Virus record (IMG/VR): IMGVR_UViG_3300045988_036188
Source of the DNA: a virus
Length of the DNA stretch: 18,203 nucleotides
Strand: one strand, 5' to 3'
Positions 1 through 18,203 of the stretch are shown piece after piece. Both the position numbers and the translations under genes were made by a program. Positions within the stretch are counted from its first letter, which is position 1; every line of letters starts with the position of its first letter. Under the pieces are notes generated by a model, which was given only the letters and a program-made list of their open reading frames with translations, did not search any database and had not been told where the DNA came from.

Positions 1-71
1 CCTGTCCCCCCGTTTCCCATGTACCTCCCCAGCGCCGCAGTCTTGTACGGGCTAGGGAGTACATGAGGAAC
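1..71. repeat. Left inverted terminal repeat (71 bp), exact reverse complement of 18133..18203
   Basis: Direct comparison: 1-71 (cctgtccccccgtttcccatgtacctccccagcgccgcagtcttgtacgggctagggagtacatgaggaac) equals the reverse complement of the last 71 nt. The match breaks at position 72. It contains an internal inverted pair, CATGTAC (18-24) and GTACATG (60-66). Confidence 0.9.
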
Positions 72-107
72 AAGAACAACATCATTCATATGTATATCTC
101 CTTTCTT
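1..107 (-). other. SD (AAAGGAG) plus ATG (plus 89..87) opening a 29-codon frame that runs off the left genome end without a stop codon; could be a terminal non-stop ORF or a short leftward RNA
   Basis: The minus strand reads aaagaaaggagatatacatATGaatgatgttgttcttgttcctcatgtactccctagcccgtacaag... to the end of the sequence. There is no in-frame stop. Confidence 0.3.
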
Positions 108-116
108 TGTGACTAC

Positions 117-145
117 ATTATAGCATAGGTGGTGAGCATATGCAA
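117..145 (-). promoter_or_regulatory. Leftward sigma70-like promoter (minus strand TTGCAT-17-TATAAT) next to the left terminus
   Basis: The minus strand reads cTTGCATatgctcaccacctatgcTATAATgtagtcac. The -35 lies at plus 140..145, the spacer is 17 nt, and the -10 lies at plus 117..122. Confidence 0.5.
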
Positions 146-157
146 GCACATATTATG

Positions 158-409
158 TTATTGCTTACGTACACGCTTAGGCTTCACACTATGCGCATAA
201 TACTTGCGGCGTACATAGTACATGAAGCACACGACGAACGCAAGCAGTAGAACGGGGTTACTTGTGACGCAATCAAAGACATACATAGCGCACTCTATAA
301 GCGTATCAATCAGCGCAAAAAGCAGCCGCAGAAGTTCGCTAAAGAAGCCGCCTATATTGTCCGTTAGGTTGTTAGCCGCTGTGTATACCTGTTCGCTGGT
401 GCTGTACAT
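158..409 (-). CDS. Small membrane protein (83 aa) with two hydrophobic segments and a basic C-terminal tail; function unknown
   Basis: Internal ATG of track ORF 158..544, preceded on the minus strand by aaaggagtaacaATG. The sequence ...SNPVLLLAFVVCFMYYV is followed by RRKYYAHSVKPKRVRKQ. The promoter lies just upstream on the minus strand. Confidence 0.55.
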   Translation of the reverse strand: MYSTSEQVYTAANNLTDNIGGFFSELLRLLFALIDTLIECAMYVFDCVTSNPVLLLAFVVCFMYYVRRKYYAHSVKPKRVRKQ

Positions 410-437: not shown

Positions 438-466
438 ATAATATAGCAATCGTGTACAGTTGTCAA
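438..466 (-). promoter_or_regulatory. Leftward promoter for the 158..409 gene (minus strand TTGACA-17-TATTAT)
   Basis: The minus strand reads tacTTGACAactgtacacgattgctaTATTATaatag. A second TTGACAA copy lies 14 nt further upstream (plus 475..480). This forms a TTGTCAAGT direct repeat on the plus strand. Confidence 0.5.
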
Positions 467-1774: not shown

Positions 1775-1800
1775 CTCCCCAATTATGTAGGTTTTGTGGA

Positions 1801-1854
1801 GCGGCTTGCAAGTGGGTTTTAATACTTGACAAGCCGCACTGCAAGGCGTAATAT
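1801..1854 (+). promoter_or_regulatory. Consensus promoter (TTGACA 1826..1831, 17-nt spacer, TAATAT 1849..1854) embedded in an imperfect 13-bp palindrome (gcggcttgcaagt / acttgacaagccgc)
   Basis: Reads aCTTGACAAGccgcactgcaaggcgTAATAT. The palindrome arms overlap the -35. It could be an operator and/or the terminator hairpin of the upstream gene. Confidence 0.55.
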
Positions 1855-2693: not shown

Positions 2694-3509
2694 ATGACCA
2701 AGGCTAACGAGAACGCCCGCGCCCGTGTTGCGGATGCAGAACGGAGGGCGCGGCGCAAGATCAAGAGATTGCAGAACAAGGGCGTAAGGACGGGCAGCGT
2801 AGAGCCGTTCAGGACGGTTGACCCGTCGAACACGAGGGCGCTAAACTCATACGCCAACCAGTTGGAAAAGTTCATATCACGTTCGACCCGTTTCGTTGCG
2901 GGGCGCGACGGCACCCCGATACCGTACACGGCTTATAGGGATTACAAACGGCTTGAAAGGCAATGGAACAGGGAACATAATAGATACTGGCAGAAGTTTG
3001 CCGCGCATCCGTTCCTGACTGCCTACGGCGAGAGCGATACCACATTGGGGATGCGTTCGGCTATGGCTCATGTTAAGGGCTTGCCGTTCGGAAACATAGA
3101 CTATCAGCGCCAACTACTCCCCGAGCAGATACGCAGCGAAGCGGATTTGCGGAAGCGAGCGCAGATTTTGAAGCGCGAACTATCCCCGACGTACCAGCGC
3201 AAGCGGATAACGCAGCTTCGCAAGAACCTTTTGGAACACGCCGCGACGTTCAACGACCCGCGAATACCCAACATGATTAGGAAGTTGAGCAACGAACAAC
3301 TGTTTGCGTTGCAGAACTTCACAAACTTCGTCCCCCTTTATTACAGGTACATAAACACCGACCGCGATAACGTGATGGGCGCACAGGCTGACGCTATGGA
3401 CGATGAAGCGCAGAAAGAGCATATGATACTGACCATTCAACAGGTTCAGAACCAGTACCCCAAGAAGCAGACCGGAAAACGCAAGCGTAAAAGCAAAAAA
3501 CGTAGGTAG
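2694..3509 (+). CDS. Terminal protein candidate (271 aa), highly basic with a C-terminal KRKRKSKKRR tail
   Basis: Perfect SD taAGGAGGTGAtccgATG. It lies directly upstream of, and is translationally coupled to, the protein-primed-type polymerase (stop 3507-3509, pol ATG 3512). Size and basic character match phage terminal proteins. The priming residue cannot be assigned from sequence. Confidence 0.6.
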   Translation: MTKANENARARVADAERRARRKIKRLQNKGVRTGSVEPFRTVDPSNTRALNSYANQLEKFISRSTRFVAGRDGTPIPYTAYRDYKRLERQWNREHNRYWQKFAAHPFLTAYGESDTTLGMRSAMAHVKGLPFGNIDYQRQLLPEQIRSEADLRKRAQILKRELSPTYQRKRITQLRKNLLEHAATFNDPRIPNMIRKLSNEQLFALQNFTNFVPLYYRYINTDRDNVMGAQADAMDDEAQKEHMILTIQQVQNQYPKKQTGKRKRKSKKRR

Positions 3510-3511
3510 CT

Positions 3512-5224
3512 ATGGAGTACGCCGCAGACTTCGAGACAACCACAGATATAAATGATTGTCGCGTTTGGGCGTGGTGCGTGTGCGAGATTGACAACCCCGA
3601 CGCACTAAGCTATGGCACGGACATTGCCACGTTTCTTGATTTCTGCAAGGTTCACGGCGGTACATATTATTTCCACAATGCTGCATTCGATTGTGAGTTC
3701 ATTATATGGTACCTGCTGACCAACGGATTTGAGTACAGCGAAAAGGCGAGGACAAAGACTTTCAAAACGCTCATATCAAACATGGGCAAGTTCTATCAGA
3801 TGAAGGTTTGCTTTGAGAAGAAGGGCAAGAATAAAGCGCTAACCTGCACATTCAAAGACAGCTTGAAGAAACTCCCCATGAAGGTATCGCAGATTGCAAA
3901 GGCTTTCGACCTCCCCATATCCAAGTTGGAGATTGACTATACGGAGTACCGCCCCGTAGGTCACGAGTTGACAGCGCAGGAACGAGACTACATCAGGAAC
4001 GACGTTCAGATCGTCGCTAGGGCGCTGCATCAGCAGTTCGGCAAGGGGCTTGACAGGCTCACCATCGGAAGCGACGCGCTCAACGGGTACAAGGACATAA
4101 TAGGCTCGAAGTGGGATGACTGGTTCCCTAAGATTCATCTGGAAATGGACGCGATGATACGCAAGGCGTATCGCGGCGGCTACACATACGCGAACCCTAG
4201 GTTTCAGGCTGACGAGGAACACGAGTACAGGCTGCAGGGCTACGGGGCTGCGTTTGACGTTAACTCGTTGTACCCCGACGTTATGTACAACAGACCGTTG
4301 CCAATCGGGCAGCCGATATATTTCCACGGAGAGTACAAGTACAACCCCCAATATCCCCTGTACATTCAATTCCTAACCTGCCATTGCAAGTTGAAGCCCG
4401 ACCACCTCCCCACGTTGCAGATTAAGAACAACCCGTTCTACTCCGAAACGGAGTACATCCATGACACGGAGGGAACAGTTGAGTTGGCTTTGACCAACAT
4501 AGACTTGGAAATACTCATGCAGCAGTACGACGTGACGGTGTTTTCGTACAACGGCGGGTACATGTTCGAGCAAGCCACTGGACTGTTCAAAGATTACATA
4601 GACTATTGGATGCACATTAAAGAAACTACCACGGGCGGTTTGCGACAGCTTGCGAAGCTCATGTTGAATTCACTTTATGGCAAGTTCGCCACGAACCCCG
4701 ACGTTACGCCGAAACTGCCTTACTTGAAAGAGGACGGTTCAGTTGGGTACAGATTGGGAGAGAAAGAGACGCGCGACCCCGTGTACACGCCTATGGGTTG
4801 CTTCATTACCGCATGGGCTAGGTACAAGACCATCAATGCAGCGCAAAGCGTATACGATAGGTTCATGTATTGTGACACGGACAGCATACACATTTGCGGC
4901 ACAGACATTCCCGAGGGTTTGGAGGTGCATCCTACACGTTTGGGCGCGTGGAAGCATGAGAGCAATTTCAGCATGGCTAAATATATCAGGGCTAAGACGT
5001 ACATGGAGAGAATCTATCAGGTTGGCAAGATGGTTGATGGCGAATACAGGATGGTTGACGTTCAGCCGTTCGATGACGTTAAGTGCGCTGGTATGCCAGA
5101 GGAGTTGAAGCGCATGGTGACGTTCGACAGTTTCAAGAGGGGCTTGCAGCTTCACGGGAAGTTGAAGCCAAGGCACGTTAGGGGCGGTATAGTGCTCGAA
5201 CCCATAACGTTCACGCTCACCTGA
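3512..5224 (+). CDS. Family B DNA polymerase, protein-primed (phi29-like) type, 570 aa
   Basis: Exo I DFETTTD, Exo II YFHNAAFDCEF, Exo III YIRNDVQIV, motif A DVNSLYPDVMY, motif B KLMLNSLYGKF, motif C YCDTDS and KxY (KYIRAKTYME) are all present. Length of about 570 aa and the adjacent terminal protein gene fit the protein-primed type. Confidence 0.95.
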   Translation: MEYAADFETTTDINDCRVWAWCVCEIDNPDALSYGTDIATFLDFCKVHGGTYYFHNAAFDCEFIIWYLLTNGFEYSEKARTKTFKTLISNMGKFYQMKVCFEKKGKNKALTCTFKDSLKKLPMKVSQIAKAFDLPISKLEIDYTEYRPVGHELTAQERDYIRNDVQIVARALHQQFGKGLDRLTIGSDALNGYKDIIGSKWDDWFPKIHLEMDAMIRKAYRGGYTYANPRFQADEEHEYRLQGYGAAFDVNSLYPDVMYNRPLPIGQPIYFHGEYKYNPQYPLYIQFLTCHCKLKPDHLPTLQIKNNPFYSETEYIHDTEGTVELALTNIDLEILMQQYDVTVFSYNGGYMFEQATGLFKDYIDYWMHIKETTTGGLRQLAKLMLNSLYGKFATNPDVTPKLPYLKEDGSVGYRLGEKETRDPVYTPMGCFITAWARYKTINAAQSVYDRFMYCDTDSIHICGTDIPEGLEVHPTRLGAWKHESNFSMAKYIRAKTYMERIYQVGKMVDGEYRMVDVQPFDDVKCAGMPEELKRMVTFDSFKRGLQLHGKLKPRHVRGGIVLEPITFTLT

Positions 5225-5431: not shown

Positions 5432-5619
5432 GGCTATGGTGATACCCAATCCGTCTGGACGATGACCGATGCGGGGTTGCTACGGGTGATGCCGCCCGCA
5501 CGAGTGCGAGCCGCATTAGCAGCGGCGGCGTTTCGGGAATGGCAATATCACCAGCACAGTCAGCCCTCGCCACGGTCACAACCGGATGGCGGGGGCTATT
5601 TTGTTGGAAGGAGAAGAAC

Positions 5620-5973: not shown

Positions 5974-7408
5974 GACTATCAAGACGCTGAACGCGACGAA
6001 CGCGCAGATTTTGAACGCGATTCGCACCGATGCTTCGTTCGCGTACCAGCAGCGCATTCCTGCTGCGACGCAGGGTGACATTACCGAGACGGTGAACAAC
6101 CTGCTCGAATACCGCCCGATGATGAACGAGTTCATCGACGCGCTTGTGAACCGCATCGGAGACGTTGTAATCAAGAGCAAGGTTTGGACTAACCCGCTCG
6201 CGCAGTTCAAGCGCGGTATGATGCAGTACGGCGAGACCATCGAGGAACTTGCCACCACGCTGATCCAGGCTAAGCGCTACGACCCGAACAAGTGCTATGA
6301 TGACGTGTTCGCTTGCCACGCGCCCGACGTTATGAGCAACTTTCACAGCATCAACCGTCAGGACTACTACGAGTTGACCGTCAACGACATGCTTCTGCGC
6401 CGTGCGTTTTTGAACGACTACGGGCTGCAAGACCTCGTGGGGCGCATCATGGAAACGCCGTACACGTCCGACTACTGGGACGAGTACCTTATCATGCGAA
6501 ACCTTTTCGCAGAGTACGCGCGAATCGACGGCTTCTACAAGGTGAACGTTCCCGATGCTTCGGCTGCGTCCACCCGTGCGGAGAAGCAGGACGATGCTAT
6601 GGCGATTACGGAAGCCGTGCGCTCGATGGCTGGCAAGATGCGCTTTCTTTCTGGACAGTACAACGCCGCAGGCGCGCCGACGTTCACGAACAACAACGAC
6701 CTTGTTCTGTTCGCAACTCCCGAGTTCGTGGCTATGCTCGACGTTAACGTTATCGCGTTCGCGTTCAACGCATCCGCAGCCGACTTCAAGATGCGCGTTA
6801 TCGAGATTGACGATTTCGGCATCGACGGTTGCCAAGCCATTCTGTGCGACCGCGATTTCTTCATGTGCGCGGACACGCTTATCGACTTCGAGAGCATCCG
6901 CAATCCCAAGGCGATTTCGTGGAACTACTGGCTGCATCACCACGGCATCTATTCCGTGTCCCGTTTCGTGAACGCAGTCATGTTCACCACGGAAGCTGGC
7001 ACCAGCGTGACTGTTCCCGCCATTAAGGCAACTGGTGTTACGCTTGATTATGCGGAGGTTGACGGAGTGAAACCCACTTACGCAGAGCGCGGTGGAAAGA
7101 CGCGCCTTATCGCCACTGTTCAGGGCACCGTAACGCCCGAGACGGAGGGGTACACGGTTCCGCAGGGCTGCACGTTCGCAATCACCGCGAACAACACGGG
7201 TGTTGAGAGCGGCGGCGTTCGGTTGAAGCTGGGCACGTTCGTGGATGCCGAGGGCGTGCTGCACGTAGCCGAGGATGAAGTTGCGGAGAACGTGACTGTT
7301 ACCGCGACCAGCACCTATATCGACCCGACGGTTGCCATGGGCGAGCAGGTGTACCAGCACAAGGATTTGATTATCGGCATTGACAAGGCGTACACGTCCG
7401 CAGGCTAA
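5963..7408 (+). CDS. Major capsid protein (481 aa) with C-terminal bacterial Ig-like (BIG2-type) domain
   Basis: SD reads acAAGGAGGacagcaacaATG. The N-terminal region (…NAIRTD…VNRIGDVVIKSKVWTNPLAQFKRGMMQYGETIEEL…) resembles the phi29 gp8 major head protein as I recall it. The C-terminal beta-rich segment TVPAIKATGVTLDYAEV…VTVTATSTY looks Ig-like. Confidence 0.8.
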   Translation: MATKTIKTLNATNAQILNAIRTDASFAYQQRIPAATQGDITETVNNLLEYRPMMNEFIDALVNRIGDVVIKSKVWTNPLAQFKRGMMQYGETIEELATTLIQAKRYDPNKCYDDVFACHAPDVMSNFHSINRQDYYELTVNDMLLRRAFLNDYGLQDLVGRIMETPYTSDYWDEYLIMRNLFAEYARIDGFYKVNVPDASAASTRAEKQDDAMAITEAVRSMAGKMRFLSGQYNAAGAPTFTNNNDLVLFATPEFVAMLDVNVIAFAFNASAADFKMRVIEIDDFGIDGCQAILCDRDFFMCADTLIDFESIRNPKAISWNYWLHHHGIYSVSRFVNAVMFTTEAGTSVTVPAIKATGVTLDYAEVDGVKPTYAERGGKTRLIATVQGTVTPETEGYTVPQGCTFAITANNTGVESGGVRLKLGTFVDAEGVLHVAEDEVAENVTVTATSTYIDPTVAMGEQVYQHKDLIIGIDKAYTSAG

Positions 7409-7418
7409 GGAGTAAGTC

Positions 7419-9596
7419 ATGGCACAAGATTTCCCTGGGTTGCCAGAGAACATCTATGAGTACGAGAATAGGTTTAACTATTCGGTATGGACACCGAACA
7501 CGTCTATTCTCATGTGCAACGTGCCGTGGGATTCTTCGTACCGTGACGTGGTGCGCTTTGATTCCGACAAGGAGCGGGACGCTTATTTCGCGTCCCGCTC
7601 CGTTGACGGGTATGCGTTCACGCTGAACGGGCTTGTATATCTTCGATACGGCGAGCCTATCCGCGTGAACGCGCCCTTTGACATGGTTACACGTTGCAAC
7701 TACATGGTTGTGAAGAACCCGCTGCAACCCGTACCTCCGTCTGGCGGCAGACAGCCAGACGTTTTCTACTACTTCGTGAACGACGCGAAGTACATAGCGC
7801 CGAACACCACGCAGGTGAATGTGCAGCTTGACGTGTGGATGACATACTACGACAGAATCAGCTTCGACCTTTGCTACGTGAACAAGGGTCACATCGGAAT
7901 CGCCAACGAGAACAGCACCATCTACAACCTTTCGGAGTACATGACAGATGCGGAGGGTTTGAACATAGGTGACGAGTACGAGATTACAGACCTCGCAATC
8001 GACAACTTTCTCAATGAACCGCCGTACATCGTTATCATGTGCACCGCTGATTTAACTGCTGGGTTCGGCAGCGTGTCAAACCCGACGCTCAAAACGGCTA
8101 CTGGTTCCATCAACGACGGTATGCCGTCTGGTTCGGCGGTGTACGCTTGCAACAGCGTGAACTTCTTGGAGTTGATGAAGAAGATGCAAGATGCGCCGTG
8201 GGTTTCGCAGTGCATCAGCATGGTCACGGTGGTTCCTGCACGTTTCGTTCAGAACGCCACGGAAACGACCGTTGCGGGAGTCCCTATGTTTCGTATGCCA
8301 GAAACACCGGCCGAGAACATCTCATCGTTGCACCTGATGCACGTTATGGACATGTTCCATATTCCCGAGCGGTACAAGAACCTTTTGAAGTTCTACACGT
8401 CACCGTACTGCGTTATCGAAATGACGGCGTACAACGGCGGCGAGATTGTGCTGAAGCCCGAATGCTTGCAGATTAACTCGTACCAAGGTCAGGACAGCAT
8501 CTTGCTTGTCACGGAGACGGTTGTGGCACCGCCCGACATTCGAGGCTATTCGTATGTGGAGGGGTACAACACAGCCAACGGGGTTGGCGGCAGAGTTGAT
8601 GCTGACTACTATCTTCCTAGCGGCGAATCGTTCCCGCATTCGGAGTCCAACCAAGAGGGTTTGGACATAGCCATTCAGTTCAGCAACTTTCCGCAGTTCT
8701 CGCTTGTGAACAATCAGTACATATATTATATGGCATCGAACCGAAACAGGCTTGCGTACCAGTTCGCCGCAGCAGATTGGTCACAGCAGAAATCGCTTAC
8801 GGCAGCGCAGCTTTCGTTCAACCAGAGCGGGGCGAACATGCAGAACGCATGGGCGAACCAGCAGGTAGCCAATCAGGCGAACTGGGCATTGAGCGGAATA
8901 TCGCAGGAGAAGAACCTGTGGAACGGCGCTTCGTCCATGATTTCGTCTGGCGTTGGCGCTGTTGGCAGCCTTGCATCTGGCAACTTCGGCGGTGCCGCCG
9001 CGGACGTTGCCAACATGGCGCTCGCTGGTGCGAACACCGCGCTGAACGCCGACTGGATTAACAGGACTACCGCGACGCAGGTCGGCGCGGCTACCGCGAC
9101 CACGCAGAACAACATCGGCTTGCAGGGGTATATGAGGGACACGAACTATGACTATGCCGTGTACGCCGCGAACGGGGACTACGAGACGGCTATTCAGGGC
9201 ATTCAGGCAAAGGTTCAGGATGCGCGGCTCACGCAGCCGTCCACTTCGGGACAGAACGGCGGCGATGCGTTCAACTTCTGCAAGGGGTACATGGGCGTGC
9301 GGTTGAAGTTCAAGAGGTTGAAGCTGAACTTCCTGCGTCAGGTTGGCGATTTCTGGCTGCGCTACGGCTACTACGTGAACCGTTGGATTGTGCCGCCCGC
9401 CGACTTGAAGTGCATGGAGAACTTCACGTATTGGAAGATGCAGAGCGTTTCGCTTTCGACAAGCGAGGTTCCCGAACTGTTCAAGGAGAGCATCAGGGGC
9501 ATTTTTGAAAAGGGCGTGACAGTTTGGAGCGACCCTGATAAAATGTACAAGATTGACCTAGCCGACAACGAGCCTGTGAAGGGGGTGCGTTACTGA
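7419..9596 (+). CDS. Tail knob / distal tail tube protein (phi29 gp9-like), 725 aa
   Basis: SD reads ctAAGGAGtaagtcATG. The N-terminal region (…ILMCNVPWDSSYRDVVRFDS…) and C-terminal region (…YGYYVNRW…FTYWKMQ…IRGIFEKGVTVWSD) follow the pattern of phi29 gp9. There is an internal Gly/Ala-rich hydrophobic loop (GASSMISSGVGAVGSLASGNFGGAAADVANMALAGA) like the gp9 membrane-penetrating loop. Confidence 0.8.
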   Translation: MAQDFPGLPENIYEYENRFNYSVWTPNTSILMCNVPWDSSYRDVVRFDSDKERDAYFASRSVDGYAFTLNGLVYLRYGEPIRVNAPFDMVTRCNYMVVKNPLQPVPPSGGRQPDVFYYFVNDAKYIAPNTTQVNVQLDVWMTYYDRISFDLCYVNKGHIGIANENSTIYNLSEYMTDAEGLNIGDEYEITDLAIDNFLNEPPYIVIMCTADLTAGFGSVSNPTLKTATGSINDGMPSGSAVYACNSVNFLELMKKMQDAPWVSQCISMVTVVPARFVQNATETTVAGVPMFRMPETPAENISSLHLMHVMDMFHIPERYKNLLKFYTSPYCVIEMTAYNGGEIVLKPECLQINSYQGQDSILLVTETVVAPPDIRGYSYVEGYNTANGVGGRVDADYYLPSGESFPHSESNQEGLDIAIQFSNFPQFSLVNNQYIYYMASNRNRLAYQFAAADWSQQKSLTAAQLSFNQSGANMQNAWANQQVANQANWALSGISQEKNLWNGASSMISSGVGAVGSLASGNFGGAAADVANMALAGANTALNADWINRTTATQVGAATATTQNNIGLQGYMRDTNYDYAVYAANGDYETAIQGIQAKVQDARLTQPSTSGQNGGDAFNFCKGYMGVRLKFKRLKLNFLRQVGDFWLRYGYYVNRWIVPPADLKCMENFTYWKMQSVSLSTSEVPELFKESIRGIFEKGVTVWSDPDKMYKIDLADNEPVKGVRY

Positions 9597-10495
9597 TGGG
9601 AAGGAATCGCAAGGGCAAGCGCAACACGTGGCAGTCTGCTGAAATGAATAACTTGCAGTACCGCATGTACTATGAAATGTTGGAGCAGATGGCTTGCGCG
9701 ATATACCGTTGGGAGGGATTGCCGACGGAGATTGACCAGCGCTTTCTCGAACTGACACTTTTCAATCGCGGAATGAGCGTGTTTTTCTGGGATGACGAGT
9801 ACGATGCTTATTTCTCCACTATGGGCGCACCGTCTGGGCAGATTAACATGTACCAGAATCCGCTTGCGTATATCGCATACGGCACTAACGGCTTTCATCG
9901 TCGGTTGAAGTCTACCGAATGTGTACCCATCTGGAACAACTATCTGCGCAGACCAGACATTAACGCAATGCGAATCTACGCGCGTAGGCTTGCGGACATT
10001 GACAGAACCGTGGACGTGAACCTTATGAGCCAGAAGATGCCGATATTCGCGGTTGTCCCTGAATCGCAGCGGTTGACCATTCAGAACCTTATGAAGCAGT
10101 ATGTGGGCAACGAGCCTATCATCGTGGGCGCTGACGGAATGTTCGACCCGTCGCAGATTACCTACCTTAGTTCTGGTGCGCCGTTCATCACGCCCGAACT
10201 GCTCAAAGCAAAGCAGACGGTTTGGGCAGAGATTATGACGTACTTCGGCATCGAGAACACGAACATCAGCAAAGCGGAGCGAGTTCAGAGCGCCGAGGTC
10301 GAAGCGAACAACGGTCAGATTGAAGCGAACCGCCTTATTCGCCTGAATTGCAGACGCGAAGCGTGCAGGCAGATTAACCGCAAGTACGGGCTTGAGGTTT
10401 GGTGCGACATGAACAAGGACGTTTCTAGCCAGAACATGAACGTGCTTCTCATGGCTGACCCCGAGGTTCAGACGGATGGAGGTGCTGGGTTATGA
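9596..10495 (+). CDS. Head-tail connector (portal) protein, phi29 gp10-like, 299 aa
   Basis: Start overlaps the upstream stop (TGATG). Shows gp10-like segments: …MACAIYRWEGLPTEIDQRFLE…, …EIMTYFGIENTNISKAERVQSAEVEANNGQIEAN…REEACRQINRKYGLEV. The size matches. Confidence 0.85.
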   Translation: MGRNRKGKRNTWQSAEMNNLQYRMYYEMLEQMACAIYRWEGLPTEIDQRFLELTLFNRGMSVFFWDDEYDAYFSTMGAPSGQINMYQNPLAYIAYGTNGFHRRLKSTECVPIWNNYLRRPDINAMRIYARRLADIDRTVDVNLMSQKMPIFAVVPESQRLTIQNLMKQYVGNEPIIVGADGMFDPSQITYLSSGAPFITPELLKAKQTVWAEIMTYFGIENTNISKAERVQSAEVEANNGQIEANRLIRLNCRREACRQINRKYGLEVWCDMNKDVSSQNMNVLLMADPEVQTDGGAGL

Positions 10496-13225: not shown

Positions 13226-14497
13226 ATGCCAAGTACCAGAACCATTTGCTATTACGCAATGTACGTTATCGGCGAGGTCGAATCCAACTGGAACTGGACA
13301 GCCGTGAACTACAACGACCCTATCACGATAGGGATGATGCAGTGGTATGGTACACGGGCTGCTGCGCTTCTCAACCGCATCAAAAACGAAATGCCAACTG
13401 CCTACGGGCAGTTGGCTGCTTCGTTGCGTTCGGACATTGAATCGCATGATGCCGGTAGTACGTGGTGGACTAGGCGTTACCTGAACAGGGACGAGGGAAA
13501 CAGCATCATAACTGTTTTCCAAGACGAGGAAAACCATGTGATTCAGGAGAATCAGGCTATAGCCGATTTCGAGGGGTACATTGCGACGCTTGAAGGCTGG
13601 GGAATGAGTCAGTCGTACCCGAAACCTTTGATATTCGCAATGAGCATGTACCATCAATCACCAGCAAGTGCGGGGCAGGTCATTGCAACGGCGGGCGGCA
13701 GCGCCGACCTCGATAGGATATACGGCGTTTGCATGAACCACGGGGTTCTTGGGCAGTACAGGAATCGCTACAACACCGTGTACCAGAGATTGAAGGATTG
13801 GGACGGTGAGAGCAACCCGCCTGATTTCGGTCAGAGCGGAGACGTTGACACAACGCCCGGGGGCAACACCCCTGGGATTAGCACAGAAAAAAGCAAGTTG
13901 GGGTACATCATTCAGAATGGAGATACGCTCATTCTTTACGGCAAAGACGAGTACGAAAAAGGCGTTATATTCTATCCCGCATCTGGACAGGTTTGGATTA
14001 ACGGGTACAACGCGAACGGAACTGACATTGGCGGCGGCAACGAGGGCGGCGGTTCGGAGAGCGGAAGCGAAGCGCAGAACGCCATATGCGAATTGTACCG
14101 CTCATGGCTTGACAGGTTCGCGTACTCGCAGGGTGCTGGACGGCTTGACCCCATAAGCAGCGGATATGGTGACTGTTCTTCTACGGTGTGGTTCGCGTAC
14201 CAGCAGGTTGCTGGAATCGACGTTGGCACGTGGACGGGCGCTATGGCGGGCAAGGGGACGAAGATAGCAAGCGGCTATTCTGGTGACAACCTACCCATCG
14301 AGGATATGGAGCCAGCCGATTTGGTGCTGATTATGTGGAATGGTTGGAACGGCTCATTTGACCACGTTGAACTGTACATGGGCAACAATGAACTTTGGGG
14401 ACATGGTGGACCCGATTACGGACCAGACCAAACCACAACCGATGCTAGGAACTATCCACGGTACATGTATTATTGGGAGGTGAGACGGTACCTATGA
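13226..14497 (+). CDS. Tail-associated peptidoglycan hydrolase (423 aa): N-terminal glycosidase-like region, Gly-rich linker, C-terminal NlpC/P60- or CHAP-like cysteine peptidase
   Basis: Its position matches phi29 gp13. The C-terminal region (…DPISSGYGDCSSTVWFAYQQVAG…FDHVELYMGNNELWGHGG) has the Cys…His…His spacing of NlpC/P60/CHAP enzymes. The linker reads GGGNEGGGSESGSE. Confidence 0.6.
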   Translation: MPSTRTICYYAMYVIGEVESNWNWTAVNYNDPITIGMMQWYGTRAAALLNRIKNEMPTAYGQLAASLRSDIESHDAGSTWWTRRYLNRDEGNSIITVFQDEENHVIQENQAIADFEGYIATLEGWGMSQSYPKPLIFAMSMYHQSPASAGQVIATAGGSADLDRIYGVCMNHGVLGQYRNRYNTVYQRLKDWDGESNPPDFGQSGDVDTTPGGNTPGISTEKSKLGYIIQNGDTLILYGKDEYEKGVIFYPASGQVWINGYNANGTDIGGGNEGGGSESGSEAQNAICELYRSWLDRFAYSQGAGRLDPISSGYGDCSSTVWFAYQQVAGIDVGTWTGAMAGKGTKIASGYSGDNLPIEDMEPADLVLIMWNGWNGSFDHVELYMGNNELWGHGGPDYGPDQTTTDARNYPRYMYYWEVRRYL

Positions 14498-15519
14498 GCG
14501 ACAGTATGTATTACGATTCTCACGACATTATGACGCGCAACGCTATGTTCAATTTCGTTATCGGCGGGCGTGGCACTGGCAAGACGTATGATTTCAAGTA
14601 CAAACGAATCAGGCATTTCATAAAGACTGGTAAGCAGTTCATATACTTGCGCAGATACAAGTCGGAGTTCGATGACAAGCAGGAGTTCTTTCAGGATATT
14701 GTTGACCGCTTTCCATCGTGGGAGTTCAAAGTTGAGGGAATGAAAGGGTACATCAGAAAGGTTGCAATAGGTGATGAAAAGCCAGAGAAATGGCGCGTGC
14801 TATGTTTCTTCATCACGTTGGCAAACGCACTGACCAAAAAGTCCGTACCCTATCCCGACGTTGATATGATAGGATTTGACGAGTTCATCATTGACAAGGG
14901 TTCGCTGCATTACTTGCAAAACGAGTTGAAGCAGTTCCAAGACTTCTACAACACGGTTGACCGATTTCAGGACAGGGTTAAGGTTATGTTCATGGCTAAC
15001 GCCGTGGCGCTCACCAATCCGTACTTCATCGGATGGAGGTTGAAGCCGAGGAAGGGAAAGCGCTTTCTCATGGCGCACAAAGGGTACATGTGTGTAGAGA
15101 TTGTGCAGAGCGAGCGGTTCAGGGCGCACGTGGACACGACAAGATTCGGTCAGATGATACGTGGAACGTCATATTACGATTACGCAGTGGGAAACATGTT
15201 CTACGATGACAATGACAAGTTCATCGCCAAGAAGTCGGAGGAAGCGCGATTCTACTTCGCGTTGCGGTTCGACAACAGGACGGTCGGTGTTTGGGTGGAC
15301 TACACGGAGGGTGTTTACTACGTGTCGCGCAGGTACCCGAAAGATGCGCTGGTTTACGTCTTGACAAAATCGGATATGCAGCCTAACCTGCTTATGATAG
15401 AGAAGTCTAGCGTGGTGTTGCGGAGCGTGCGCAAGCTGTACATGCAGGGAAGCGTGTTCTTCGACACTATCGAGACGCGAGAGTTCTTCAACAACGTGTT
15501 CGACTATCTGGGATTTTAG
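14494..15519 (+). CDS. DNA packaging ATPase (phi29 gp16-like encapsidation protein), 341 aa
   Basis: Walker A FNFVIGGRGTGKTY. The gp16-like stretch FIKTGKQFIYLRRYKSEFDD and a Walker B-like MIGFDEFI are present. SD reads tGGGAGGTGAgacggtacctATG, with ATGA overlapping the upstream stop. Confidence 0.9.
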   Translation: MSDSMYYDSHDIMTRNAMFNFVIGGRGTGKTYDFKYKRIRHFIKTGKQFIYLRRYKSEFDDKQEFFQDIVDRFPSWEFKVEGMKGYIRKVAIGDEKPEKWRVLCFFITLANALTKKSVPYPDVDMIGFDEFIIDKGSLHYLQNELKQFQDFYNTVDRFQDRVKVMFMANAVALTNPYFIGWRLKPRKGKRFLMAHKGYMCVEIVQSERFRAHVDTTRFGQMIRGTSYYDYAVGNMFYDDNDKFIAKKSEEARFYFALRFDNRTVGVWVDYTEGVYYVSRRYPKDALVYVLTKSDMQPNLLMIEKSSVVLRSVRKLYMQGSVFFDTIETREFFNNVFDYLGF

Positions 15520-15716: not shown

Positions 15717-16664
15717 ATGATCGGCACTTTTATGAAGCGTCTTAGAATCAGCGCAATCACGGCGCTTGCCGTGTTCGCTATGCTGGTCGGCACAGCCGCG
15801 CCCGCATACGCATGGACGGAACATGACAACTTCATCGCAGACGGTCACGGCTGGTTCCAACCGCAGAACCTTGTAGTGCATTCCACGGCGAACGAGGGAG
15901 CGACCGCATGGAATCACGTCCAATACTGGCAGCGAATGGGCAACGACACGCCTATGGCGCAATGGGTTGCTGACTGGACTGACGGCGGCACGGTGTACCA
16001 GACCATGAGCGGGAACGCCGTTGCGTGGCACGTTGGCAACGGAAACTGGTACAGCGTCGGCATCGAGATTTGCGAAGCCACCAACCAGCACGACTTCGAG
16101 GTTGGATTCGACACGGCGGCGCAATGGTGCGCCGTGTACCTCAACCAGCAGGGTTGGGGCATCGACCGAATGGTTTCCCACAACGAAGCGCGTTACGTGT
16201 GGGGCGGCACAGACCACGTTGACCCTATTCCGTACTTCGCAAAGTGGGGCAAGACTTGGGGCGATTTCGAGAACCTTGTTCAGTATTACCTCGACAACCC
16301 GTCTGCTATGACCTATGACGATGGCGAGGGTTCCGCGCCCGATACGCCAGAAGCGCCTGTTCCTGACAGCATCGAGGAAGCCGCATACGGTGTGTTGCAG
16401 GGATGGTACGGAAACCAGCCAGAGCGACAGTACAATCTTGAAGCTGCTGGTTATGACTATCAGACCGTGCAGGACTACGTGAACCGTGTGTATTACGGCA
16501 TCGGCGGCGGTTCAACTGGTTCCGATTGGATTGCCGACGTTGCATACGACGTGTACCTTGGCAACTACGGAAACGGTCAGGACAGGTACGACCGCCTTAC
16601 GGCTGCTGGTTATGACTATCAGACCGTGCAGGACTACGTGAACCGTGTGTATTACGGCATCTAG
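15717..16664 (+). CDS. Endolysin: N-terminal signal peptide, N-acetylmuramoyl-L-alanine amidase (Amidase_2/PGRP-like), two C-terminal CW_7 cell-wall-binding repeats (315 aa)
   Basis: SD reads aagatGGAGGGttagaATG. The N-terminus MIGTFMKRLRISAITALAVFAMLVGTAAPAYA|WTEHD has an AxA signal-peptidase site. Amidase_2-like features are …LVVHSTA…AWHVGNGNWYSVGIEICE…SHNEARYVWGGTDHVDP. Two GxYGN…R…L.AAGYDYQTVQDYVNRVYYGI repeats match the Cpl-7-type CW_7 motif. Confidence 0.85.
   Translation: MIGTFMKRLRISAITALAVFAMLVGTAAPAYAWTEHDNFIADGHGWFQPQNLVVHSTANEGATAWNHVQYWQRMGNDTPMAQWVADWTDGGTVYQTMSGNAVAWHVGNGNWYSVGIEICEATNQHDFEVGFDTAAQWCAVYLNQQGWGIDRMVSHNEARYVWGGTDHVDPIPYFAKWGKTWGDFENLVQYYLDNPSAMTYDDGEGSAPDTPEAPVPDSIEEAAYGVLQGWYGNQPERQYNLEAAGYDYQTVQDYVNRVYYGIGGGSTGSDWIADVAYDVYLGNYGNGQDRYDRLTAAGYDYQTVQDYVNRVYYGI
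16443..16502 (+). repeat. 60-bp perfect direct repeat, copy 1 (second copy at 16602..16661), encoding the core of the two CW_7 repeats
   Basis: gctgctggttatgactatcagaccgtgcaggactacgtgaaccgtgtgtattacggcatc occurs twice and is identical at the nucleotide level. Confidence 0.9.
16602..16661 (+). repeat. 60-bp perfect direct repeat, copy 2
   Basis: Identical to 16443..16502. Confidence 0.9.
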
Positions 16665-16667
16665 CTT

Positions 16668-16697
16668 GCAGCCCTCGGAAGAGGGCTGCTTTTCTTC
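16668..16697 (+). terminator. Rho-independent terminator of the late operon (gcagccctc-ggaa-gagggctgc + ttttcttc)
   Basis: Perfect 9-bp stem with a 4-nt loop and a T-tract, starting 4 nt after the endolysin stop. Confidence 0.85.
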
Positions 16698-16726
16698 TTG
16701 ACAAGGCAAGTGGTTTTTGATACTAT
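16698..16726 (+). promoter_or_regulatory. Right-end operon promoter (TTGACA-17-TACTAT)
   Basis: Reads tCTTGACAAGgcaagtggtttttgaTACTAT. It shares the extended -35 CTTGACAAG with the promoter at 1826. Confidence 0.6.
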
Positions 16727-18065: not shown

Positions 18066-18132
18066 TGGCTGAGCCGGTTATAATCAGCGCTAGTCGCCGT
18101 CTACGGCGATAATGTTGTACTTTGTTCCCTCC

Positions 18133-18203
18133 GTTCCTCATGTACTCCCTAGCCCGTACAAGACTGCGGCGCTGGGGAGGTACATGGGAAACGGGGGGAC
18201 AGG
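18133..18203. repeat. Right inverted terminal repeat (71 bp)
   Basis: Exact reverse complement of 1..71. Confidence 0.9.

Follow-up and report, generated by a model that had tools for sequence, protein, structure and literature searches.

A conserved outward-directed promoter at the left end of a phi29-like gut phage genome and its predicted terminal-repeat RNA

The packaging RNA (pRNA) of phage phi29 is encoded by the leftmost unit of that genome, is transcribed leftward from a strong promoter and stops short of the genome end, at a terminator 146 nt away, without taking in any inverted terminal repeat (ITR). Many other phi29-like phages carry a gp16-type ATPase without a known RNA partner. 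No account of a promoter that points outward to the genome end and is conserved beside the ITR of a protein-primed phage was found in the literature, nor was anything relevant found on Eggerthella podovirus transcriptomes or on terminal run-off promoters in protein-primed replicons. Stabilising hairpins at the 3' ends of phage mRNAs are known from the RNase III sites used in T7 early mRNA processing and from terminator-type hairpins, and the linear replicons of Streptomyces carry terminal palindromes, with fold-back of the 3' strand for end patching by terminal protein. The functional pRNA comprises 120 nt and is described in a review as unique to phi29 and related Bacillus phages (PMC11476376). 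At the 5' end of the Bacillus thuringiensis cry3A mRNA, a stabilising Shine-Dalgarno (SD) element, STAB-SD, binds a 30S subunit that blocks RNase J1 (Agaisse and Lereclus 1996, reviewed in PMC4113751). The DNA analysed here (IMG/VR record IMGVR_UViG_3300045988_036188, 18,203 bp, hereafter the window) represents a small phi29-like podovirus of the gut and contains its linear genome in complete or nearly complete form. The element in question lies at its left end, where a promoter is directed away from the genes and into the left ITR.

On the minus strand, the -35 hexamer of this promoter (P_L2), TTGCAT at 140..145, is followed after a 17-nt spacer by the extended -10 element TGcTATAAT (117..125), within which TATAAT occupies 122..117; the pattern match spans 117..145. 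The original prediction had given this promoter as TTGCAT-17-TATAAT at 145..117, which is borne out, and had overlooked the TG that makes the -10 (125..117) an extended one. Promoter geometry would place the transcription start around position 110 (108..112), approximately 7 nt past the -10. An SD-like element, GAAAGGAG, lies at 96..103 as a ribosome-binding site or possible 5' stabiliser, and AAGGAG at 103..98 is, as had also been described, followed after 8 nt by an ATG at 89..87. These elements are uncommon in the window: with both strands counted, TGNTATAAT occurs once, against 0.34 occurrences expected, this being the -10 at 125..117, while TTGCA-N17-19-TANAAT occurs once (0.07 expected) and AAGGAG-N8-ATG twice (0.10 expected), the second time at the start of the terminal-protein gene. 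A generic promoter scanner did not list the 145..117 site because TTGCAT matches TTGACA at only three of six positions; TTGCA-type -35 boxes are, however, also found in other promoters of this phage and in the relatives of clade C described below. The 17-mer AAGGAGATATACATATG at 87-103 (minus strand) is identical to the ribosome-binding site and start of T7 gene 10 and of pET vectors. Vector contamination as its source was ruled out, as the same sequence is present in many independent metagenome contigs, and this, together with the variant SD-ATG spacer of contig L006, led to the likeness being judged natural and coincidental.

The promoter is specific to the left end. The left ITR (1..71, both strands) comprises 71 nt and is 100% complementary to the right ITR at 18133..18203 (both strands), next to which there is no SD, no -35 and no TG element, as the original prediction had stated. 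Outward transcription at the right end is instead predicted as read-through of the rightward operon, of which the last promoter lies at 16698-16726, after a terminator at 16668-16689. The right end does contain a lone TATAAT at 18081-18086 (plus strand) and an in-frame ATG without an SD. This TATAAT is placed at a near-mirror distance, 118-123 nt from the right end as compared to 117-122 nt for the left -10, and is not present in most relatives' right ends.

Relatives were collected by a scan of IMG/VR based on the family-B DNA polymerase (PolB), which gave 42 loci, and by an ITR-pattern scan of metagenomes, which gave 19 further genome ends. Type A left ends, represented by the window and nine contigs at least 95% identical to it, combine the ITR with the promoter/SD/ATG cassette, and the outward promoter is identical or near-identical in 10 independent type A contigs. 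The promoter block is also retained in L017, L026 and L019, and L013 carries TTGAAT-17-TGaTATACT with a diverged spacer. In the five contigs of clade C (PolB 75% identical), the ITR of approximately 63 nt, confirmed at both contig ends, is unrelated to that of the window and no leftward protein gene is present; an outward promoter, TTGCAC-17-TGcTACAAT, with a -10 of TGCTAYAAT across the clade, is located directly outside the left ITR only. Between L020 and the most divergent member of the clade, L028, a 33-nt block that runs from the TG through the -10 to roughly the 20th transcribed base shows a single difference, as against 77 differences in the 229 surrounding positions (34%), including spacer, linker and ITR (binomial P = 2.4e-5), and an AT-rich tract upstream of the -35, resembling an UP element, is invariant in the clade. 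The type D left end of L025 has an outward TTGACA-17-TAATAT followed by GAAAGGAGG, without a canonical start codon. Five contigs make up type B, which shares the ITR family of type A and has no cassette; here the leftward gene, which codes for a predicted membrane protein, ends 3 nt short of the ITR. The conserved block of clade C, taken together with the type A, L013 and L026 sequences, argues that outward transcription has been maintained by selection across PolB identities of 75-99%. The source of transcription into the left ITR would be a dedicated promoter in types A, C and D and the abutting leftward gene in type B, while rightward operons lead into the right ITR at all right ends, and outward transcription of both ITRs thus appears, from the sequences, to be the common denominator of every genome of the lineage. 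A check of the ends of Av-1, Athos, Voltaire, CH17P1 and LE1-1 revealed no clear outward promoter; the 29-nt ITR of LE1-1 contains an inward one, which is the conventional arrangement.

For the predicted transcript (110..1, minus strand), folding gives a free 5' leader of approximately 30 nt and one long imperfect hairpin at 81..3, formed by the outward-sense strand of the ITR and some 10 nt of flank around a 6-nt loop. Its minimum free energy (MFE) is -44.7 kcal/mol (z = -5.4), compared to -30.2 kcal/mol (z = -2.6) for the complementary plus strand. Hairpins with a hexaloop and two to three interruptions are predicted for types A and B as well as for clade C, which is unrelated in sequence, with z values of -3.6 to -5.0 (-3.8 and -4.2 in clade C), and the outward sense is the more stable by 5-15 kcal/mol at nine of the nine ends tested, with 2-8 G·U pairs as against 1-2 in the inward sense. 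Variable pairs shift via G·U intermediates, one of them occurring as UG, UA or CG and another as CG or UA, and in types A and B 86% of cells pair, versus 41-54% in slid controls. The apical hexaloop, inspected by eye, is neither conserved (AAGACU, AAGGUU and AAGUUU; CAGAGC in clade C) nor self-complementary. The hairpin is followed by ...GGGGGGCCAGAGUGU, without the U-run of an intrinsic terminator, and a terminator scan did not list it.

At the right end the corresponding hairpin (18108..18203, plus strand) is nearly blunt, as base pairing joins the flank ATAATGTTGTACTTTGTTCCCTCCG to the terminal G-run and the final nucleotides. The MFE computed on the consensus terminus is -58.9 kcal/mol, and L087 reaches -65.2 kcal/mol. 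This flank is invariant in all right ends, including those of L086, L087, L100 and L102, even where the ITRs differ, and the right terminus is modelled as an imperfect palindrome of approximately 95 nt. The flanks that pair with the terminal G-run read UCCCUCCG at the right end, UGUUCUUG at the type A left end and AGCGUCU in type B. The four differences of the type A left flank are all C-to-U and keep wobble pairing in all four cases, and this flank looks like a copy of the right one decayed by C-to-T changes. In being long and imperfect, carrying internal loops and lying at the 3' end of a transcript, the hairpin recalls the T7-type stabilising hairpins, and the almost blunt form at the right end should, by this analogy, block 3' exonucleases; unlike those hairpins, it has no U-tract, its 3' end would arise by run-off rather than processing, and the element is at the same time the replication origin repeat. 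The parallel with Streptomyces replicons, in the form of an actinobacterial host, terminal-protein-capped linear DNA and a hairpin of the 3'-ending strand near the terminus, is a lead only, as the window has a phi29-type terminal protein and PolB with full-length strand displacement, a single hairpin and no sequence relationship to those replicons.

The window is probably short of about 4 terminal nt, because six related contigs from different assemblies (L006, L087, L092, L093, L099 and L102) start exactly with ACACTCTGG/CCCCCCCG and some other related contigs have sequencing adapters directly next to the ITR sequence; at its termini the window reads CCTGT..., unlike the consensus ACACTCTGG/C. 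An ACAC dinucleotide repeat at the terminus would suit jumping-back or sliding-back protein-primed initiation, as in adenovirus and PRD1. The run-off transcript of approximately 109 nt put forward in the original prediction holds in so far as the strong outward promoter should give approximately 110 nt to the terminus, while the transcript itself stays a predicted one.

From the ATG at 89..87 a frame of 29 codons, MNDVVLVPHVLPSPYKTAALGRYMGNGGT, does run through the ITR and off the left end (1..89, minus strand) without a stop, as had been reported, and adding the approximately 4 consensus terminal bases extends it to 31 codons without closing it. The missing stop codon is weak evidence for a gene, since the GC-rich ITR leaves two of the three outward frames open at both genome ends. 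Every type A contig has the SD and the ATG. Outside this type the frame is not conserved, and it is judged incidental: of the five clade C genomes, four have a leader without an ATG, L025 lacks a canonical start and the cassette is missing from type B. In the ITR variant of L105, five of 17 residues are replaced (S>T, P>L, Y>H, T>I and L>M) in a pattern that follows the pairing of the hairpin. As judged from these comparisons the open reading frame (ORF) is not under selection, and the proposal of a functional non-stop ORF is not supported. Since the hairpin and the outward promoter are both conserved and the ORF is not, the RNA is read as non-coding.

The reading preferred here, to which a probability of about 0.5 is given, is that a conserved dedicated promoter produces a non-coding run-off RNA made up of a leader and the ITR hairpin. 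A sigma-70-type promoter (TTGCAT-17-TGcTATAAT) would fire away from the genes and off the terminal-protein-capped end, yielding an RNA of approximately 110 nt in the window, or approximately 114 nt with the missing terminal bases, in which a purine-rich leader of some 40 nt with the SD-like GAAAGGAG precedes an ITR hairpin of some 75 nt. The SD, ATG and open frame would then be a by-product of a standard promoter-leader cassette set against a GC-rich, stop-free repeat. Binding of a 30S subunit at the SD-like site may protect the 5' end and the near-terminal hairpin the 3' end, which together would make the ITR hairpin RNA abundant and stable. As in STAB-SD, GAAAGGAG(G) lies near the 5' end of the predicted transcript in the window and in L025 (it is found also in the leader of the leftward gene) and could bind a 30S subunit without a conserved ORF, so that by analogy the element may act as a 5' stabiliser blocking a 5'-3' exonuclease. 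Unlike in STAB-SD, however, a perfectly spaced ATG follows the motif in type A, making real initiation possible, and the motif of clade C is degenerate (GAAAGATA).

Within this reading the left promoter would give the left ITR what operon read-through gives the right one, namely outward transcription, and the most likely site of action of the RNA would be the genome ends or the packaging motor, where its place would be comparable to that of phi29 pRNA; its effect may lie in the RNA acting in trans or in transcription acting in cis on the replication origin. The bolder proposition that the ITR is itself an RNA gene, expressed from the left promoter and by read-through on the right to supply a stable RNA to the gp16-type motor or to the firing of the protein-primed origin, is tentative and rather unlikely. 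If a pRNA role or a role in origin firing were true, the lineage, in which the only product of a conserved promoter is a small, predictedly structured RNA of the terminal repeat, would hold a structurally new class of phage end-associated RNA outside the Salasmaviridae. If neither were true, it would serve as a warning for annotation that SD-ATG frames running off terminal-protein-capped ends are not genes. The outward promoter and its predicted RNA are regarded as a variant of the left-end small phage RNA or the 3'-stabilising hairpin.

Several observations weigh against the preferred reading. L006 keeps the SD, the 8-nt spacing and the ATG although three of the eight spacer bases differ, and the perfect SD, spacing and ATG of type A would look like the pattern expected of a translated start. 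Type B relatives manage without a dedicated promoter, and the outward cassette resembles that of the leftward gene, so that it could be a duplicated remnant. The terminus of L025 is unconfirmed, as the other contig end with an ITR was searched for and only one end was found. Covariation within types A and B is not significant, 59 of 500 shuffles reaching the observed score, because the sequences are too similar, and the case for a structure therefore comes from its recurrence between types A/B and clade C and from the strand asymmetry; a DNA-level function of folding the 3'-ending strand would produce the same asymmetry. Promoter firing, the transcription start, the run-off end and the stability and role of the RNA are all inferred from sequence.

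The least improbable alternative is that transcription acts in cis to open the GC-rich protein-primed origin and the RNA itself is irrelevant. In such a scheme a hybrid of G-rich RNA and C-rich DNA may free the 3'-ending strand, the hairpin of which would present the last nucleotides to the complex of terminal protein and polymerase, and the left end would need its own promoter, the right end being served by operon read-through. The outward transcription predicted into both ITRs in every genome of the lineage fits this, as do the base composition (62% GC in the ITR, 52% in the genome and 33% in the adjoining 72-160) and a C6 run 9-15 nt from the 5' end, which is common to all clades and to Actinomyces phage Av-1. 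The non-template strand of outward transcription is, moreover, both the best-folding strand and the template for protein-primed initiation. The very stable hairpin of the nascent RNA would, however, compete with R-loop formation, and conservation of the leader and its SD-like motif is unexplained if RNA sequence and stability are irrelevant. In addition, no terminator lies between the promoter of the leftward gene and the left ITR, and type A transcripts of that gene would also enter the ITR, which makes a second promoter redundant. We know of no protein-primed replicon that needs transcription for origin firing, which also counts against this alternative, and it is considered unlikely. A cis effect, if true, would mean transcription aiding a protein-primed origin, of which no earlier case is known to us, and would bear on the engineered orthogonal replication systems built on such replicons.

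A neutral origin is somewhat less probable again. The outward unit would here be a remnant or duplicate of a leftward promoter, ribosome-binding site and start module, left behind when the termini recombined or the ITR was converted. The window has a single convincing minus-strand gene (158..409), which codes for a predicted membrane protein of 83 aa. It is preceded by the promoter TTGACA-17-TATTAT at 466..438 (minus strand), and its promoter and leader share the architecture of the outward cassette (cTTGaCA-17-(TG)cTATAAT, GAAAGGAG and ATG). The absence of the cassette from type B and the resemblance of the left flank to a decayed right flank point the same way. ITRs and flanks also reassort, the ITR of L093 being of type A and its flank of type B, and L105 joining a type-B-like ITR to the type A cassette, which implies recombination or ITR conversion at the repeat boundary. 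A neutral remnant would, however, not be expected to retain its -35, spacer length, TG and -10 at PolB identities of 75-99% while spacers and ITRs diverge, as quantified above for clade C. In that clade the outward unit is, furthermore, the only leftward transcription unit, and it is there that the UP-like tract is invariant.

Genuine translation of the non-stop ORF, either into a functional peptide of 29-31 aa or as a means of running ribosomes to the 3' end, for coupling to RNA polymerase or engagement or titration of tmRNA, is improbable. It would account for the near-ideal AAGGAG-8 nt-ATG, of which 0.1 are expected per genome, and for the intact SD and ATG of L006. The two substitutions in the codons outside the ITR are both synonymous (GAT to GAC and GTT to GTC), counts that are too small to carry weight. 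Against it stand the starts missing from most of clade C and from L025, the cassette missing from type B, and the replacements in L105, which track hairpin pairing and not protein conservation. Two of three frames are open by composition alone, and a non-stop product is normally tagged and degraded.

With phi29 pRNA the outward unit shares its position and promoter type, being the leftmost unit and transcribed leftward from a strong promoter, and the window -10 is identical to the extended -10 of the phi29 pRNA promoter A1, TGCTATAAT. Both RNAs are small, at approximately 110-120 nt, structured (by prediction in the window) and without conserved coding capacity, and both genomes code for a gp16-type ATPase and a connector with a basic N-terminus. 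The encapsidation ATPase, which the original prediction had invoked, is confirmed by a PHROG match at 14473-15519 (plus strand). The upper-collar/connector protein starts with the strongly basic MGRNRKGKRN (9596-9625, plus strand), which is reminiscent of the N-terminal RKR motif of phi29 gp10 needed for pRNA binding. Folding of the minus strand and the covariance-model search for pRNA that had been suggested gave a long hairpin and no pRNA match: Rfam RF00044 found nothing at E <= 10 in the whole window or, with permissive filters, in 1-620, while phi29 201-318 as a positive control scored 145.4 bits. RF00044 likewise has no match in Av-1, Athos and Voltaire, and its reach outside Bacillus phages is therefore limited. 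The record of Av-1 (L109) annotates a predicted 'packaging RNA' at 16295-16402, near the right end, which RF00044 does not detect. The Rfam matches on the window hairpins are weak miRNA-precursor types only and reflect the hairpin. MFE and centroid folds in three clades consist of a free 5' leader and a single hairpin, with no 5'/3' A-helix or three-way junction and, as judged by eye, no evident pair of complementary loops. The RNA of the window would furthermore be the ITR itself and run off the end, unlike phi29 pRNA, and in type B, among the close relatives, a dedicated gene for it is missing. The original suggestion that the RNA belongs with phi29 pRNA finds no support in these comparisons as far as the family is concerned, although a pRNA-like role is possible. 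That the RNA is a genuine, highly diverged phi29 pRNA, forming a ring on the connector and docking the gp16-type ATPase, is very improbable, since its niche, its size near the 120-nt functional pRNA (PMC11476376), the ATPase and the basic connector are set against a missing RF00044 match even on 620 nt, a single hairpin with a free leader, the type B genomes without a discrete gene and an RNA that reaches the DNA end.

A structure scan of two other sites where a pRNA might have been encoded, 410-606 and 5438-5619, did not make either stand out; the former is a divergent promoter region and the latter a late-promoter leader before a probable scaffold-like ORF. The only other structured-RNA candidate of pRNA size that modelling indicates in the window is a multibranched fold at 7515-7700 (plus strand) inside the tail-knob gene (7419-9596), with a closing helix and three hairpins, one of them a perfect 12-bp stem (7500-7720, MFE -104 kcal/mol, z = -7.3). 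Across 10 relatives, 12 of its 66 pairs show double changes, some of them through paired synonymous codon changes, and the abundance of G·U pairs speaks for folding in the mRNA sense; among the most distant relatives the structure degenerates. Rfam with permissive filters gave no pRNA match in 7400-7800 and only weak miRNA-type hairpin matches across the regions searched. The fold may be a cis-regulatory or stabilising element of the mRNA. A further hairpin at 1790-1840 (plus strand; z = -3.5 for 1770-1900), which is intergenic and precedes the genes of the SSB region, overlaps the -35 region of a rightward promoter, TTGACA-17-TAATAT (1826-1854), and is a possible terminator/promoter junction or operator.

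The remaining genes with PHROG matches are all on the plus strand and code for the terminal protein (2694-3509), PolB (3512-5224), the major head protein, tail knob, upper and lower collar and endolysin. One relative, L005 (IMGVR_UViG_3300045988_054355, 19.1 kb), matches the window at 97% from position 1963 onward and carries 3.7 kb of unrelated GC-rich, leftward-coding DNA (L005 1-3770) in place of the left 2 kb of the window; it probably represents either a chimera or a different left module, and was dropped as an informative left end. Among the isolates of the phage collection, Eggerthella phage LE1-1 (Guelinviridae) comes closest to the window, with a patchy match. Its record (L001, MW679025) is labelled circular, and the repeat of approximately 29 nt at its start recurs inverted 17 nt from the other end; LE1-1 is probably also a linear genome with ITRs.

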